Positions 14,608 through 20,809 of a stretch of DNA of 20,809 nt are shown here, one piece after another (the first letter of the stretch is position 1; each line of letters starts with the position of its first letter). The notes beneath the pieces are model-generated. The model saw only the letters and a program-made list of their open reading frames with translations. It was not told the DNA's origin and made no database searches. The translations under genes and the position numbers were made by a program. Source of the stretch: Nitrososphaerota archaeon (GTDB lineage Archaea; Thermoproteota; Nitrososphaeria; Nitrososphaerales; UBA57); the NCBI GenBank assembly GCA_013378385.1, contig JACAFS010000014.1, positions 1 to 20,809 of the forward strand, read 5' to 3'.

Positions 14608-15927
14608 TTATCCCAAGCCTATTGCATGGTATTCTAATTTGTTGAATTGTTTCTTCGAAAAGATTCTACGACCGTCAATTATAAGTGGCCTTTTCATCAA
14701 TCGAATAAAATCTTTAGGTTTGAGCATTTTGAATTCTTTCCATTCAGTCACAATAATACAGCAATCTGAATTGCGTATACAAGACTCTGAATCTTTCGCG
14801 TAGGTGATAGAACTTCCAAATATTCTCTTCGTATTATTATTTGCTATAGGGTCGTAGACTCTGACTTTAGCCTTCTTGTCTAACAATCTCTTGATAATTT
14901 TAATTGACGTAGCGTCACGTATGTCATCAGTTTCAGGTTTAAACGCAAGTCCTAGAATCGATATCCTTTTTCCTTCTAATTGGCCTAATTCTTTATTCAA
15001 AATATTAAACACACTCATAAATTGCGTATCGTTAATCGCTAATACTGACTGTAAAATTTCTGAATTAACGCCTAACTCCTTACTAAAAGCAATTAATGCT
15101 TTAACGTCTTTCGGAAAACATGATCCACCAAAACCCAAGCCTGCATTAAGAAATGACTCAGAAATTCTTTTATCCATGCCAATTGCATTTTTAATCTCAT
15201 TCACATCTCCATCTGGTATTCGTTCGGCTATTCTTGATATATAGTTCATAAAACTGATTTTCGTTGCCAATAATGAATTGTTTGCGTATTTAATTAGTTC
15301 AGCATTGCTTGGCGTTGTATAAACTATTGGAAGATTCTTCCTATAGATTTTTTTGAATAATTTATAAATAATTTTTTTATCTTTCTCTGAATTTACTCCA
15401 ACTACAATCTTGTCTGGTCTTAGTGTATCATTTATTGCACTACCCTCTTGCAAAAATTCTGGATTGACTATTACTCCAAAGTGTATTGAATTCTTTTTTC
15501 TTGAATGTTTTTCTAAATTGTCTATTATCTTTAATGCCGTTCCAGGAACAACGGTACTTTTTATAACAATTACAAAATATTCTTCTATATCCTTTATTGC
15601 AATTGCTATATCTTTTGACGCTTGTTCTATATATTTCAAATCTATCGAACCATTTTTCCGACTTGGTGTACCTACTGTAAGAAATATTATCTTTGCTTTT
15701 GTCACATCTGCCACTTTTCTGCTTAACGATAATCTATTCTTTTTGATGGCTTTTTCTAGTAATTCATTCATATATTTCTCATGAATTGGAGAATCTGCAT
15801 TCTTTATCCTGTTTATTTTCTTACTATCGATATCTACACCTAACACATTTATTCCTCTATCTGCAAAGCAAACGGCTGTAGAAAGTCCTACATAACCTAA
15901 ACCCACAAAAGCCACGTCGTATTCCAT
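14608..15927 (-). CDS. ugd: UDP-glucose 6-dehydrogenase (UDP-glucose/GDP-mannose dehydrogenase family)
   Basis: 439 aa. It has the N-terminal Rossmann motif VAFVGLGYVGLSTAVCFA, the catalytic-Cys motif GFGGSCFPKD and a C-terminal UDP-binding domain (ILGLAFKPETDDIRD). Confidence 0.8.
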   Translation of the reverse strand: MEYDVAFVGLGYVGLSTAVCFADRGINVLGVDIDSKKINRIKNADSPIHEKYMNELLEKAIKKNRLSLSRKVADVTKAKIIFLTVGTPSRKNGSIDLKYIEQASKDIAIAIKDIEEYFVIVIKSTVVPGTALKIIDNLEKHSRKKNSIHFGVIVNPEFLQEGSAINDTLRPDKIVVGVNSEKDKKIIYKLFKKIYRKNLPIVYTTPSNAELIKYANNSLLATKISFMNYISRIAERIPDGDVNEIKNAIGMDKRISESFLNAGLGFGGSCFPKDVKALIAFSKELGVNSEILQSVLAINDTQFMSVFNILNKELGQLEGKRISILGLAFKPETDDIRDATSIKIIKRLLDKKAKVRVYDPIANNNTKRIFGSSITYAKDSESCIRNSDCCIIVTEWKEFKMLKPKDFIRLMKRPLIIDGRRIFSKKQFNKLEYHAIGLG

Positions 15928-15985: not shown

Positions 15986-16864
15986 GTGTTAAAGAAAGTA
16001 GTTATTCCTGTAGCAGGTCGTGGAACTCGATTACTTCCTACTACAAAAGTTCAACCCAAAGAAATGCTTCCTGTTTTTTCTTCGTTTAAAGGCGATATAT
16101 TACTAAAACCAATGGTTCAGCTTATCTTTGAACAATTATTTGATTTTGGTATTCGTGATTTCTGTTTTATTGTTGGCCAAGAAAAACGCGCTATTAAAGA
16201 TCATTTTTCTCTAGATTATCCATATCTTGACGCCCTATCTAACAAAAAAAATAATATTTCATATAAAGATATGAAATTATTTTACAAACGCATAGAAAAG
16301 TCAAATATTACTTGGATTAATCAAAGTCATCAATTAGGTTATGGACATGCTGTTTCATTAGCTTCTTCTTTTGTTGGTAACGATGATTTCATTTTACATG
16401 CTGGTGATACCTTGATCGTACAACCAAATAGACAACATCTTACTGTCTTGAATAAATTATCTAGTAAATCTGATTGTGTTGTAGCATTAGAGAAAATTTC
16501 TGAACCAAGTGCGTATGGTGTCGTAATCGGCAAACGCACAAAAAAATATTCTCTTCCTTTAAATGAAAAAGTATACGAAGTAACTCAAGCTGTTGAAAAA
16601 CCATCTAAAAAAATTTCTAACCTTGCTATTATGGCATTAAATAAGTTTACTCCTGATGTCATGAAAATTTTAAAGAAAATCCCTTCTGGATATGGAGGAG
16701 AAATACAGATTACTGATGCAATACAGTATATGATTGATTCAAAGATGGATGTTTTGGGATATGAATATCATCATTCTTGTACACGGCTTGATATTGGCAC
16801 ACCAGATACTTATTGGCATGCTCAACAATCTTCTAAAAAACTTGCTACTAAAGGTTGGATGTAA
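15986..16864 (+). CDS. galU: UTP--glucose-1-phosphate uridylyltransferase (GalU-type sugar-1-phosphate nucleotidyltransferase)
   Basis: 292 aa. [35 protein letters not shown] and GEIQITDAI match E. coli GalU ([43 protein letters not shown]) by eye. A GTG start is required because the conserved G-loop precedes the first Met. Confidence 0.75.
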   Translation: [292 protein letters not shown]

Positions 16865-17869
16865 TTGAGCGACATAATAAATTCTGACATAGCAACCCTT
16901 CTATCTGACAACAAAAAATTTCGTATCTCAGATAAACAATTCTTGATTACTGGAGGTGCGGGTTTCTTAGGAAGTTGGTTGTGTGACCTTCTAATAGCAA
17001 AGAATGCTCGAGTATATTGTATTGATAATCTATCTTCTGGCCGTGCTGAAAATATTAAACATCTATTGAAGAATAAATCTTTTGTTTTTAAAAAACACGA
17101 CATCACAAAAAATACTCTTAATGTAAAACCCGATTATATTTTTCATTTAGCTAGTAGACCCTCTCCAGACGATTATCTAAATAATGCAATACAAACTATT
17201 GATGTGAATACTGAAGGAACTAGAAAAATTCTTGAACTCACCAGAAAAACTGATGCAAAACTTCTATTCACTTCTACTTCCGAAGTCTATGGCGAGGCAA
17301 CTGTCTTTCCAACTCCTGAAAGTTATTATGGAAACGTAAATCCATCTGGACCTAGATCATGTTACGACGAAAGTAAACGATTATGTGAATCTCTATGCAT
17401 GGCTTACAACAGAACCTATGGCCTTGATTTGCGAATTGTAAGATTATTCAATACATACGGCCCAAGACTTCGTGGCGATGGCAATTATGGCAGAGCGTTA
17501 TCTAGATTCATTTGGCAATCTATAAACAATCAAAGAATTACTATCTGGGGAAATGGAAAACAAACACGATCATTTTGTTATATTACGGATATGATTAATG
17601 GATTAATGGCTTCTTTACTTGTTAAAAGAACCAAAGGCGAAACCATTAACCTCGGAAATCCTAAAGAAACACGAATTATTGACTTGGCAAATATGGTCAT
17701 TAAGTTAACCGACAGTAAATCTGAAGTTAAATATTTACCAATGCCTGACAACGACCCTCGACGTCGTTTACCAAAAATCACTAAAGCCAGACAAATAATT
17801 GGCTTCACTCCTCGTGTTAAACTTAATCAAGGACTTTCTAAAACTATTGAATGGCAAATAGATAGATAA
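16865..17869 (+). CDS. uxs: UDP-glucuronate decarboxylase (UDP-xylose synthase), extended SDR
   Basis: 334 aa. Motifs: ITGGAGFLGSWLCDLL, TSTSEVYG, YDESKR (YxxxK), and the RLFNTYGPR… region typical of UXS enzymes. A TTG start follows the galU TAA directly (TAATTG). No ATG precedes the Rossmann motif. Confidence 0.7.
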   Translation: MSDIINSDIATLLSDNKKFRISDKQFLITGGAGFLGSWLCDLLIAKNARVYCIDNLSSGRAENIKHLLKNKSFVFKKHDITKNTLNVKPDYIFHLASRPSPDDYLNNAIQTIDVNTEGTRKILELTRKTDAKLLFTSTSEVYGEATVFPTPESYYGNVNPSGPRSCYDESKRLCESLCMAYNRTYGLDLRIVRLFNTYGPRLRGDGNYGRALSRFIWQSINNQRITIWGNGKQTRSFCYITDMINGLMASLLVKRTKGETINLGNPKETRIIDLANMVIKLTDSKSEVKYLPMPDNDPRRRLPKITKARQIIGFTPRVKLNQGLSKTIEWQIDR

Positions 17870-17945
17870 CAGGCCCGGAGAGACTTGAACTCCCGATCTC
17901 CAGCTCCGCAAGCTGACGCCTTAATCCAATCTAGGCTACGGGCCT
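17870..17945 (-). tRNA. tRNA-Arg (anticodon GCG), 76 nt including discriminator G; no intron, no encoded CCA
   Basis: The reverse complement folds as a cloverleaf. The acceptor stem is AGGCCCG/CGGGCCT (7 bp). The D stem is GCCT/AGGC, with a GG-containing 11-nt loop. The anticodon stem is TCAGC/GCTGG, with loop TT-GCG-GA. The variable loop is 5 nt (AGATC). The T stem is GGGAG/CTCTC, with loop TTCAAGT. The 3' end abuts the uxs stop codon (17867..17869) with no spacer. Confidence 0.9.
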
Positions 17946-17970
17946 ATACATACAGTTTGTAATCACTAGA

Positions 17971-18010: not shown

Positions 18011-19291
18011 GTGAGTTTGCTTAAAACAAAGGAATACGTCATTTCATTTATATCGCAATCTATAGGAATTCCAAACGGGTTGGAATCCATATATGAAGAC
18101 ATTCCTGACGATATAGTTAAACAGATATCTGTTGCACTAACGGGGAAAGACGTACACACAGAAACTTTTGAAGAGGACGATTCTCCAATAGTTGATGAAT
18201 TCATACAATGGGCTCAAGAAGTTTATGAAGAAGTGTGTAAAGAAAACAATATTCCTGCAGTTTGGAAAAGTAAATGGCCGAATAATAAAAGGTTTGCAGT
18301 TGCATTAACACATGATTCAGATAGTATTGAGGTTACAGAAGAACATTTACAAAAAGTTAAAGATCGTTTTAGTGAAAGCGATTTAAAGGAAGCATTAGAA
18401 GGACGAAAGAATTTATATTGGAATATAGAAAGAATCAAAGAAGTTGAAGATAAATTTAGATTCAAATCGTCTTTTTATTTTCTAACAAGTGAATATAATG
18501 TTGAACAATACAAGGATGTTTTGGACGAATTAATGAAGAATGGTTGGGAGATAGGATTACATGCAGGATTTGGCACACACGATAATGAAGATAAGATGAA
18601 AGAAGATATCGTAGAATTCAAGAAACAATTAGGATATAGACCAAGAGGCGTGCGTGAACATTACTTACAATTTGATTATCATAAAACATTAGATTTCTTA
18701 GAAAGAAATGAATTTGTATATGATACTACATTGGGTTTTAGAGAACATCCCGGTTTCTTTTTAGGAACATCTATGCCATTTTATCCTCCAAAAGAGAATT
18801 GGGAAAGAAGAGAGATAATAGAGTTACCATTAATCATAATGGACACAAGTTTATGGGGATACATGGATCTAGATGAAGAATCTGGAATGAAAATAATAGA
18901 ATATTACATTGCAAATATCAAAAAGTTCGGCGGCCTTCTCACAATATTATGGCATCAAGAGGCATTTTTGATGAAAAAAGGCGAGATTTATACACGTATT
19001 TTAGAAAAATTATCTAAAGAAAATTGCTTTGTATCATCGGGAATCACTATCGCAGAATGGTGGAACAATAGAAACAATTTCGAGATATCAATCGTCGAAG
19101 ATAGCCAAAAAGGGTGGAAATGCATTATAACCAATGCCGCAAAGGGCATGTGCATAGAAGCAAAGATTTTTGACTTAACAAAGAGTATTTCAATTAATGG
19201 ACCGGGAAGAATAATTGATAAATCAGAAGCTGATGGAGAAATACATTATAGTATTGAATTAGAAGGAGATTGTGAGTTATTTTATGTCTAA
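18011..19291 (+). CDS. Cytoplasmic polysaccharide-deacetylase-like (CE4/NodB-homology) protein with an N-terminal extension of about 90 aa
   Basis: 426 aa with no signal peptide. FAVALTHDSDS corresponds to the TFDD-type motif. GWEIGLHAGFGTH is a His-His metal motif with divergent spacing. RGVREHYLQFDYHKTLDFLERNEFVYDTT corresponds to the RxPY…GfxYDSS region, and LLTILWH is a late His motif. The start is GTG 18011, or TTG 18017. Confidence 0.55.
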   Translation: MSLLKTKEYVISFISQSIGIPNGLESIYEDIPDDIVKQISVALTGKDVHTETFEEDDSPIVDEFIQWAQEVYEEVCKENNIPAVWKSKWPNNKRFAVALTHDSDSIEVTEEHLQKVKDRFSESDLKEALEGRKNLYWNIERIKEVEDKFRFKSSFYFLTSEYNVEQYKDVLDELMKNGWEIGLHAGFGTHDNEDKMKEDIVEFKKQLGYRPRGVREHYLQFDYHKTLDFLERNEFVYDTTLGFREHPGFFLGTSMPFYPPKENWERREIIELPLIIMDTSLWGYMDLDEESGMKIIEYYIANIKKFGGLLTILWHQEAFLMKKGEIYTRILEKLSKENCFVSSGITIAEWWNNRNNFEISIVEDSQKGWKCIITNAAKGMCIEAKIFDLTKSISINGPGRIIDKSEADGEIHYSIELEGDCELFYV

Positions 19292-20360
19292 AAATATTTT
19301 GGTTACAGGTTCTGGCGGGATCGGCGGAGTAAATTTTGTCAATGCATTGAAGATTGCAAAGAGAGAATACATAATTTCAGGAACTGATTTTAACAAATAT
19401 TATTTAGAGTTACCGAATCTAGATTCCAAATACAGAACACCAAGACATACAGATCCTAAATTTCTAGAGAAGATTAAAGAAATAATTGATAAAGATAAAA
19501 TTGACTTTCTACATCCAAGTCCACATTCTGAAGCTAGTGTAATTGCAAAGGAGATAGATCAGATAAACACCGCCACATATTTGCCTAGATACGACATCAT
19601 AATTAGAGATAAATTACAAACTCAGGAGATTTTAAAAAGAAACGACGTTCCTGTAGCAAAAACCGAAACAGTGAATTCTTTAGATGAAGTCGAACACACA
19701 AAGGAAAAATTCAAAGATGAGAAAGTTTGGGTGCGAATGAAAAGCGGCGCAGGAGGAAAATTAAGTTTATTGTGTGAGACTGTAGAACAAATACAAGATT
19801 GGATTAGAATATGGGTGAATAGAGGAATTGCAGAACATTCAGATTTTATGATTCAAGAGTATCTTCCAGGTAGAAATATTGCATGTGATAGCTTATGGCA
19901 TGATGGAAAATTAATTGCTTCATTTACAAGAGAGAGATTAGAATATCCATTCAAACATATTTCCCCATCAGGAATTACTGGAACACCGACTGTATCTCGA
20001 ATTGTTATAGATGAAAATGTAAATGATATTTCTAAGAAAGCAATCCTGTCGTCAGATCCAAAGCCTCATGGAAGTTATGCCGTTGATCTGAAAGGCGATG
20101 TAAAAGACAATCCAATCGTAACTGAAATTGATTCAGGAAAATTCCACACTACTACTGCGTTGTGGGGAATAGTATCAGACAGATTAGGATTAGATTCTAA
20201 GAAAAACTTGGCAGATTATTATTGCGCAATAGGAATGAATTTAGTAGAACCAGAAAGTCTTGGTACCGATATCTATCCAGATGACCTATATTTAATCAGG
20301 CATATAGACACAGGAACATGGATTTGGAAAGAAGATGGATACAAGGTAAAGATACTTTGA
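19284..20360 (+). CDS. ATP-grasp family ligase
   Basis: About 358 aa from ATG 19284 (MSKNILVTGSGGIGG…). The track's GTG 19272 adds 4 codons. It has a pre-ATP-grasp Rossmann-like N-domain, VWVRMKSGAGGKLS (Lys plus Gly-rich loop), MIQEYLPGRNIACD (hinge, the EYxPG type) and VTEIDSGKF (Mg/ATP-binding Glu region). The ATG overlaps the upstream stop by 8 nt. Confidence 0.6.
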   Translation: MSKNILVTGSGGIGGVNFVNALKIAKREYIISGTDFNKYYLELPNLDSKYRTPRHTDPKFLEKIKEIIDKDKIDFLHPSPHSEASVIAKEIDQINTATYLPRYDIIIRDKLQTQEILKRNDVPVAKTETVNSLDEVEHTKEKFKDEKVWVRMKSGAGGKLSLLCETVEQIQDWIRIWVNRGIAEHSDFMIQEYLPGRNIACDSLWHDGKLIASFTRERLEYPFKHISPSGITGTPTVSRIVIDENVNDISKKAILSSDPKPHGSYAVDLKGDVKDNPIVTEIDSGKFHTTTALWGIVSDRLGLDSKKNLADYYCAIGMNLVEPESLGTDIYPDDLYLIRHIDTGTWIWKEDGYKVKIL

Positions 20361-20809
20361 TTGAACTAGTTATTTTTGATTTAGATGGAACACTAATTAA
20401 ATTACCTGTAAGATATGATTGGCTTAGAACTGAATTAAAAGACAAATTTAAGATAGAAGGGGAATTCTTCCTTATACCTATGATAGTAGATAGTACAAAA
20501 GGAAAAGACGAACTAAAAAGAGACGCATTTGAACTTATTTGTAAAGAAGAATGTAATTCAATAAATAATTTAGAGATTCATGAAGGCGCAATAGAAGTAA
20601 TAAAAGAAATCCATGCTCGAAATAAGAAACTTGCAATGGTAACTCTACAATGCGAACGCGCTGCAAATCAGATTCTAGAGATTATGGGTGTAGAGAATCT
20701 ATTTTCAAACATATTTACAAGAGACAATTATACCAACCGGTACGACCAAATAATACATACAATGAAAAAATTCGATGTTGATGCACTTGAAACATTGATG
20801 ATTGGCGAT
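20357..20809 (+). CDS. HAD-superfamily hydrolase/phosphatase; C-terminus lies beyond the window edge
   Basis: The frame is open from TTG 20357 to the window end (151 codons). It reads LIELVIFDLDGTLI (motif I, DxDGT), LAMVTLQ (motif II Thr) and ends in …LMIGD (motif III/IV region). The TTG overlaps the ATP-grasp TGA (TTGA). It is not in the supplied track because it has no stop in the window. Confidence 0.65.
   Translation, partial: MIELVIFDLDGTLIKLPVRYDWLRTELKDKFKIEGEFFLIPMIVDSTKGKDELKRDAFELICKEECNSINNLEIHEGAIEVIKEIHARNKKLAMVTLQCERAANQILEIMGVENLFSNIFTRDNYTNRYDQIIHTMKKFDVDALETLMIGD

Follow-up and report, generated by a model that had tools for sequence, protein, structure and literature searches.

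The window analysed here, a stretch of 20,809 nucleotides, makes up an entire contig (C6) of an archaeal genome of about 1 Mb (30% G+C; G000 below), whose closest relatives have public records labelled Thaumarchaeota/Nitrososphaerales. Its end, positions 18011–20809, holds three open reading frames (ORFs), all on the + strand in the ORF list, which form a cassette of a CE4-fold, VimE-related putative de-N-acetylase, an ATP-grasp carboxylate-amine ligase and a HAD-IA type phosphatase; most likely, the cassette serves to decorate a sugar of a surface glycan through an amide link. The de-N-acetylase gene (18011–19291, +, 426 aa; NCBIfam, AlphaFold2, Foldseek) is followed by the ligase gene (19284–20360, +, 358 aa from the ATG at 19284; sub-threshold Pfam matches, AlphaFold2, Foldseek) and by the phosphatase gene (20357–20809, +, with an open 3' end, 151 codons from the TTG at 20357; HAD_2). 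An earlier reading of this DNA made from its letters alone (the sequence-only reading) had described three co-oriented genes with overlapping junctions, and both junctions were confirmed. At the first, ATGTCTAA (TTTTATGTCTAAAA in wider context), the ligase gene begins, with an ATG at 19284, before the CE4 stop codon TAA is reached (19289–19291), an overlap of 8 nt by which the ligase is predicted to be translationally coupled to the CE4 gene. At the second, TTGA (CTTTGATTGAA in wider context), the HAD start codon TTG at 20357 overlaps the ligase TGA (20358–20360) by 4 nt. Longer ORFs can be drawn for the ligase (GTG at 19272, 362 aa) and for the HAD protein (start at 20318); the shorter starts are preferred because the homologues measure 358 aa and 197 aa respectively.

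The HAD gene had been noted to run off the window, and contig C4 from the same genome supplies its end. About 130 nt at the tail of C6 (window 20680–20809) are shared with the start of C4 apart from one mismatch, and since this single mismatch is the only difference, the assembly break at the end of C6 is probably a strain-level single-nucleotide polymorphism. The gene stops at C4:~270, giving a protein of about 197 aa in full, and is followed on C4 (C4:1–1777, locus L129) by a convergent gene for a 488-aa polytopic MOP/Wzx-like membrane protein. In the nearest relative (G001) the cassette is followed downstream by a flippase-like gene only and then by unrelated sulphur-transport and beta-propeller genes. 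Taken together, C4 and G001 indicate that no partners are hidden downstream and that the cassette consists of three genes.

The CE4-like protein is matched below threshold by the Pfam family Polysacc_deac_1 (PF01522; 19.2 bits against a cut-off of 23.1), and a single-sequence search of solved structures returned nothing useful, so that profile and fold searches were needed. Its best named family is NCBIfam VimE (NF053580, UDP-2,3-diacetamido-2,3-dideoxy-glucuronate deacetylase; E = 1.1e-19). An AlphaFold2 model built on 33 homologues reached a pLDDT (predicted local distance difference test) of 93.7 and was matched by Foldseek, with E values down to 8e-13, to 3rxz, HP0310, PuuE allantoinase, insect chitin deacetylases, ArnD, PdaC and WbmS (3hft), the probability being 1.0 against 3rxz, 3qbu, 3cl6, 5z34, 8t0j and 6h8l. 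The distorted (beta/alpha) barrel common to solved CE4 enzymes is thus present in the predicted structure. A profile of the family also finds 3rxz (E = 3e-10), with THDSD aligned to TFDVD. Conservation among 68 homologues is 90% or higher at H101, D102, D104, H184, R215, H217, D238, E271 and H315, and the CE4 motif residues D102 and D104 (T-H-D-S-D), H184, R215 and L313-W314-H315 are kept. The divergent spacing of the metal motif reported by the sequence-only reading proved real: the histidine motif reads H184-x5-H190 against H-x3-H in 3rxz, the second histidine standing two residues later than in the canonical form. The model is nevertheless not devoid of metal-binding residues, whose loss would have counted against that reading: it retains the likely catalytic residues Asp, Arg and His and, as putative metal ligands, an Asp and a His at the least. 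The likely base, acid and arginine and at least two metal ligands (Asp, His) therefore appear to be kept in a metal site that is atypical.

Around the catalytic barrel (residues ~95–350) the protein carries an acidic helical N-terminal region (residues 1–90; 18 D/E against 7 K/R) and a C-terminal seven-stranded beta-sandwich (residues ~357–426), which is confidently modelled by AlphaFold2 and had been overlooked in the sequence-only reading. That reading had correctly called the N-terminal ~90 residues acidic and had treated them as a key unknown; this emphasis does not hold, since about 40% of the homologues are core-only forms of 240–300 aa that lack both regions, which makes both accessory. 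DUF7033 is missing from the Pfam match list of the protein and occurs in more distant CE4 relatives (a scan from which VimE itself was left out); hhalign aligned the N-terminal region to it weakly, over the last helix only (residues 59–92, probability 44%).

The second gene had been called an ATP-grasp enzyme, and the structural evidence bore this out. All its Pfam matches were sub-threshold (ATP-grasp_3, PylC-like_N, GARS_A and RimK), its best NCBIfam match was PRK12767 (E = 3e-20; 72 bits against a cut-off of 218), and a sequence search of solved structures gave weak PurD/RimK matches only. The AlphaFold2 model (pLDDT 89.9) has the ATP-grasp fold; its best Foldseek match is the uncharacterised structure 2pn1 (E = 6e-17; template-modelling score, TM, 0.67/0.78), followed by PurD, L-amino-acid ligases (RizA, BacD), PurK and PylC. 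At least 500 matches were found at E ≤ 0.001, and the best 50 are all ATP-grasp enzymes. About 70 residues are invariant among 24 homologues of 47–85% identity, and identity across classes is about 50%. The invariant positions include G159-A-G-G162, E285 and D287, which we take from general knowledge of the fold to be the glycine-rich flexible loop (G159–G162) and the acidic Mg-binding residues (E285 and D287). On the strength of its model the ligase can be placed in the ATP-grasp superfamily. The sequence-only reading had said that a ligase of the carbamoyl-phosphate synthase or biotin carboxylase type would speak against it, and the protein is neither, falling in no characterised clade: neither CPSase_L_D2 nor Biotin_carb is among its Pfam matches, it is 358 aa long, and the folds of both enzymes rank below 2pn1 and, except for one biotin-carboxylase subunit at rank 4, also below PurD and RizA. 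Homologous ATP-grasp domains, 30–32% identical to the ligase, are fused in bacteria to a WbmS-like polysaccharide deacetylase (PF22537) in two proteins, P0178 and P0180, and other longer homologues join Amidohydro_2 to ATP-grasp or, in one case, ATP-grasp to a sugar-nucleotide SDR.

The third protein is, by its sequence, a generic HAD-IA type phosphatase. The part in the window matches HAD_2 (E = 4e-13; 50 bits against a cut-off of 23.8), as does the full-length homologue in G001 (E = 3.5e-20, 73 bits), and motif I (FDLDGT) is encoded inside the window, motif IV (GDRIND) in the part of the gene on C4. Weak matches were also seen to phosphatases of the MupP and GmhB types. The HAD gene lies directly downstream of the ligase gene in 53 of 81 loci and is the most constant partner of the ligase, with or without a CE4 gene. 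The sequence-only reading was right to see a phosphatase here; its suggestion that the enzyme acts on a sugar-phosphate carrier is not favoured, since the constancy without CE4 points to a phosphorylated co-substrate or a sugar phosphate and not to a general sugar-phosphate carrier.

The linkage of the genes was followed in Thermoproteota at 78 loci where the ligase gene is well called, all from genomes chosen as species representatives. The CE4 gene is the immediate neighbour of the ligase gene in 68 of them, which span Nitrososphaeria, Marsarchaeota, Korarchaeia, Thermoprotei and Bathyarchaeia, and the full triad, with CE4 and HAD genes both flanking the ligase, occurs in 48, so that the genes do co-occur in other genomes. 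The CE4 and ligase genes are mostly co-oriented and stand head-to-head in about 16 Nitrosopumilaceae-type loci. Among the relatives that have the cassette are Nitrosotenuis, Nitrosarchaeum and Nitrosotalea. An arrangement that recurs in dozens of genomes is more than chance. Within the same family, 12 of the 14 genomes sampled encode the ligase; elsewhere in the order its distribution is patchy, and across the phylum it turns up in 48 of 401 genomes (~12%). The CE4 family occurs in 35 of the 401, and about 12 genomes have both. This poor co-occurrence at genome level was considered as a refutation and set aside, given a separate CE4-less ligase clade in AglB loci and CE4 paralogues elsewhere. 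The CE4-less clade was brought out by 20 of the discordant loci (L108–L127), from other families of the phylum, in which a derived ligase is found without CE4 and the HAD gene is kept in 13. Some of these loci have, in the CE4 position, a gene for a 289-aa protein with a faint GH43-like match. In two more distant loci (L019 in G018 and L020 in G020) an AIR-carboxylase (PurE-like) domain or a DUF354 protein replaces CE4 upstream of the ligase, which indicates that the ligase family swapped partners more than once.

Clustering of the neighbour genes of the ligase loci brought out four recurrent partners. One is a membrane protein of about 500 aa with a weak Polysacc_synt match, whose Atlas neighbours are Polysacc_synt, Polysacc_synt_3 and MurJ, and the membrane-protein gene on C4 is of the same MOP-type flippase-like kind. 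Another is a GalU-like sugar nucleotidyltransferase, found in several lineages, and a third group consists of glycosyltransferases of families GT4 and GT2. The fourth, seen in soil lineages, comprises a thymidylate-kinase-like P-loop protein together with a gene of the inositol-monophosphatase family. The P-loop protein (316 aa, with an N-terminal extension of ~100 aa) is encoded directly upstream of CE4 and co-oriented with it in soil Nitrososphaerales (L058:5673–6620, L063:5810–6757 and about 25 other loci), often with a second kinase-like gene (196 aa) nearby, and it could be a specialised kinase of the pathway. The thymidylate-kinase-like and inositol-monophosphatase genes were nevertheless rejected as pathway members, neither being linked to the cassette in this genome. 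Neighbours in the CE4-less clade are AglB/STT3, an AglH-type Glycos_transf_4, DUF354, an SDR epimerase/dehydratase, an NDP-sugar (nucleoside diphosphate sugar) dehydrogenase and a flippase-like gene.

The window also carries surface-layer (S-layer) genes and three other sugar pathways. Upstream of the cassette lie genes for a UDP-glucose 6-dehydrogenase (14608–15927, −), a GalU-like nucleotidyltransferase (15986–16864, +) and a UXS-like SDR (16865–17869, +), all assigned by Pfam and NCBIfam; they flank the cassette in G001 and G005 as well, in a linkage conserved within the genus only, and are possible suppliers of a uronic-acid substrate. A tRNA-Arg(GCG) gene (17869–17946, −; ARAGORN) stands between galU-uxs and the cassette, directly upstream of the CE4 gene and divergent from it. 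The same tRNA is immediately upstream of CE4 in relatives (L013, L014, L026, L044), and it is divergent throughout the genus and its neighbours. The block of tRNA, CE4, ligase and HAD genes sits between uxs and the flippase-like gene and has there, in G000 and G001, the opposite orientation to that in G005, and by this inversion of the whole block the cassette behaves as a movable unit.

Elsewhere in the genome (C18:11565–14817) genes for a Gfo/Idh/MocA oxidoreductase (Agl19/WbpB-like), a hexapeptide acetyltransferase (Agl17/WbpD-like) and an AglH-type Glycos_transf_4 stand in a row, and the same Agl19, Agl17 and AglH neighbourhood is present in Nitrosopumilus piranensis, as judged from locus tags given in PMC12153357 (Table 1). 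This gene set suggests that the organism makes di-N-acetyl-hexuronic acid. Three DegT aminotransferases are also encoded, together with four NDP-sugar dehydrogenases (one each on C6 and C91 and two on C1), two of which are UDP-ManNAc/GlcNAc-dehydrogenase-like; the dehydrogenase at C1:8262–9956 is extended at its N-terminus by ~130 aa. In the glycans of this organism uronic sugars seem to predominate, and judging from its gene content the genome can probably make suitable amino-uronic substrates. Di-N-acetyl-hexuronic acid, HexA(NAc)2, is present in the N-glycan of Nitrososphaera viennensis (PMC12153357). A 287.11 Da unit in the glycan of N. viennensis (C11H17N3O6) was considered as a diamino-hexuronic acid with one acetyl and one alanyl substituent, which its composition fits, and was discarded since nuclear magnetic resonance (NMR) shows acetamido groups at C2 and C3.

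The reading we prefer, tentatively and at somewhat less than even chances, is that the cassette is a cytoplasmic sugar-tailoring module of the N-glycan/S-layer glycan pathway that performs a Vim-like exchange of acyl groups. From the folds and families of the proteins, the operon structure, the conserved linkage and the glycosylation context described above we infer, as follows, the substrate, the sequence of reactions, the kind of acyl group brought in and what the phosphatase does. The CE4-fold enzyme would remove an N-acetyl group from an activated amino sugar, most plausibly one of the N-acetylated amino-uronic type, for which the di-N-acetyl-hexuronic acid known in the phylum is an example. 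The ATP-grasp enzyme would then convert a carboxylate into an acyl-phosphate and join it in an amide with the freed amine, with the net result that acetyl is swapped for another acyl group, for example an amino acid or a hydroxy acid. The HAD enzyme would strip a phosphate from the incoming partner or from the sugar, and the modified sugar would enter a lipid-linked glycan to be flipped by the adjacent MOP-type protein. That the deacylase and the ligase act in succession is argued by their linkage, their translational coupling and the fusions, and the neighbouring genes indicate protein or surface glycosylation in place of a soluble metabolite. Deacetylation followed by ATP-dependent amide formation in sugar chemistry, the core of the sequence-only reading, thus fits the gene linkage, the bacterial fusions and the VimE match. 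The fold neighbours of the ligase are carboxylate-amine ligases, including PurD and L-amino-acid ligases, and PurD acylates a sugar amine (phosphoribosylamine).

Several observations weigh on the other side. The VimE match reaches 70.4 bits against a cut-off of 440 bits and covers the C-terminal half of the profile only (CE4 residues 162–331 on profile positions 250–421 of 431), and the protein is on this comparison not a VimE orthologue. The displaced second metal-binding histidine, H190, is present in only 65% of the homologues. No CE4 of this family was found in the genomes of the CE4-less ligase clade, and because that clade keeps ligase and HAD, the ligase does not depend on prior deacetylation by CE4. 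The Vim-like model is weakest at the HAD gene, since Vim-type logic gives a phosphatase no ready role, and the constancy of that gene without CE4 fits the precedent of Campylobacter jejuni better. The two logics could be reconciled, for example, if the acyl or amine partner entered in phosphorylated form and lost its phosphate once ligated; archaeal N-glycans do have products of this kind, as Methanoculleus with its N-glyceroyl, N-acetyl diaminoglucuronamide and Methanococcus with its threonyl mannuronic acids show (PMC11407970). A more specific form of this idea, which we regard as improbable, is that the triad is the enzyme set for non-acetyl N-acyl groups on the diamino-uronic sugars of archaeal N-glycans, such as the glyceroyl of the N-glyceroyl 2,3-diaminoglucuronic acid of Methanoculleus; the ligase would use a phospho-acid donor (3-phosphoglycerate, phosphoserine or similar) and the HAD enzyme would trim the phosphate afterwards; if true, this would define a phylum-wide route of deacetylation, ligation of a phospho-acid and dephosphorylation that is convergent with the Vim and Cj1438/Cj1435 chemistries.

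The C. jejuni precedent also gives rise to a rival explanation, somewhat unlikely in our judgement, in which the ligase activates the C6 carboxylate of an (N-acetylamino)hexuronic acid, in a glycan or on a carrier, and joins it to a phosphorylated amine (ethanolamine phosphate, serinol phosphate, phosphoserine and phosphothreonine are candidates), the HAD enzyme removes the phosphate, and CE4 carries out a separate deacetylation or frees the amine donor. It would account for the HAD gene as the most constant partner of the ligase whether CE4 is present or not; the pair has NDP-sugar dehydrogenase genes close by in the window and likewise in the CE4-less clade, an ATP-grasp amidoligase with a HAD phosphatase is an exact precedent (PMC11800379), and a threonine-amidated uronic acid is known in archaeal N-glycans (PMC11407970). 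Such an amidation sits poorly with a ligase that is not TupA-like by sequence, ATPgrasp_TupA (PF14305) being absent from its Pfam matches at E ≤ 0.01, and it leaves the deacetylase and amidohydrolase fusions and the coupling of CE4 to the ligase unexplained; moreover, no amine-phosphate-forming enzyme dependent on pyridoxal phosphate was seen in the cassette or among those recurrent neighbours that were annotated, which are a part of the whole.

Two further proposals place the chemistry before or outside glycan assembly. In one, decidedly improbable in our view, CE4 and the ligase remodel an amino-sugar phosphate (compare PurD) and the HAD protein is a MupP/GmhB-like sugar-6-phosphate phosphatase that feeds a kinase and a nucleotidyltransferase, yielding a new NDP-sugar. 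The PurD-like matches of the ligase, the weak HAD matches to MupP and GmhB-type enzymes and the recurrence of GalU/GlmU-type nucleotidyltransferase and P-loop genes beside the cassette, in varied arrangements in several lineages, are consistent with it; however, the HAD matches are all generic and far below family cut-offs, the kinase-like gene is absent from the cassette of this genome, and glucosamine 6-phosphate can be obtained without a deacetylase. The other, raised by the sequence-only reading, is a soluble, mycothiol-like N-acyl glucosaminide, for which a GT4 enzyme would make GlcNAc-X-phosphate, HAD dephosphorylate it, CE4 deacetylate it and the ligase add an amino acid. The order of these steps mirrors that of MshA, MshA2, MshB and MshC, and many Nitrososphaerales loci have genes of the GT4 and inositol-monophosphatase families only a few genes away from the cassette. 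In this genome, however, no GT4 gene of the recurrent cluster was found, the inositol-monophosphatase-family gene lies elsewhere (on C1), and the cassette stands in an S-layer/glycan island. A flippase-like protein is a recurrent partner beside GT4/GT2 and nucleotidyltransferase genes, the ligase-HAD pair of the sister clade lies between AglB and an AglH-type transferase, and the patchy presence of the ligase in the phylum is unlike that of a core redox buffer, all of which makes a soluble product very improbable.

The acyl exchange that we prefer bears on a wider gap, in that amide groups of archaeal N-glycans include threonine on mannuronic acid, glyceroyl on diaminoglucuronic acid and uronamides, and the literature searched names no enzyme for their attachment in Thermoproteota. 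In ammonia-oxidising and related archaea the measurement of N-glycan chemistry is only beginning (PMC12153357). The cassette is small and strongly conserved, and it offers three soluble, expressible candidate enzymes with a clear biochemical hypothesis. If acyl exchange is its function, it would be an independent, ATP-grasp-based solution to the Vim-style logic of stripping an acetyl and adding another group. A role in surface variation fits a module that is patchy and adjoins S-layer genes, and such variation may matter for virus-host interaction in the ocean.

Two characterised systems, both absent from the sequence-only reading, come closest to the cassette. In the Wbp/Vim pathway of Porphyromonas gingivalis and Tannerella forsythia, the putative deacetylase VimE acts before VimA, which adds Ser or Gly (PMC7468200). 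Common to both is a proposed CE4-type removal of one N-acetyl from a di-N-acetyl-glucuronic precursor followed by aminoacylation of the freed amine by a second enzyme, and no named family matches the CE4 protein better than VimE; the cassette differs in that its second enzyme is an ATP-grasp ligase whereas VimA is of FemAB/GNAT type, in that a HAD phosphatase is part of the unit, and in that the host is an archaeon and the target probably an N-glycan instead of anionic lipopolysaccharide (A-LPS). In the HS:2 capsule of C. jejuni, the C-terminal ATP-grasp domain of Cj1438 amidates glucuronate with serinol phosphate or ethanolamine phosphate, after which the phosphate is taken off by Cj1435, a HAD enzyme (PMC11800379). 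The cassette likewise pairs an ATP-grasp enzyme with a HAD phosphatase and has a UDP-glucose dehydrogenase encoded nearby; Cj1438C, by contrast, is TupA-like and fused to GT2 whereas the ligase is stand-alone and set apart by its Pfam matches, enzymes forming serinol phosphate or ethanolamine phosphate are not present here, and the C. jejuni system has no deacetylase. The "carbamoyl phosphate synthase-like" proteins of the 2pn1/PRK12767 type, which are the best fold and NCBIfam matches of the ligase, are uncharacterised and so give no clue to its substrate. The fusions P0178 and P0180, uncharacterised as well, unite deacetylase and ATP-grasp activities in one polypeptide but are bacterial, use a PF22537 deacetylase domain and have no HAD domain. 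No paper on the combination of a VimE-related CE4 enzyme, a non-TupA ATP-grasp enzyme and a HAD phosphatase was found in the literature searched, and the combination with Agl and flippase-like linkage across Thermoproteota is without a characterised member, while each of the enzyme classes and each of the two-step logics has precedent.

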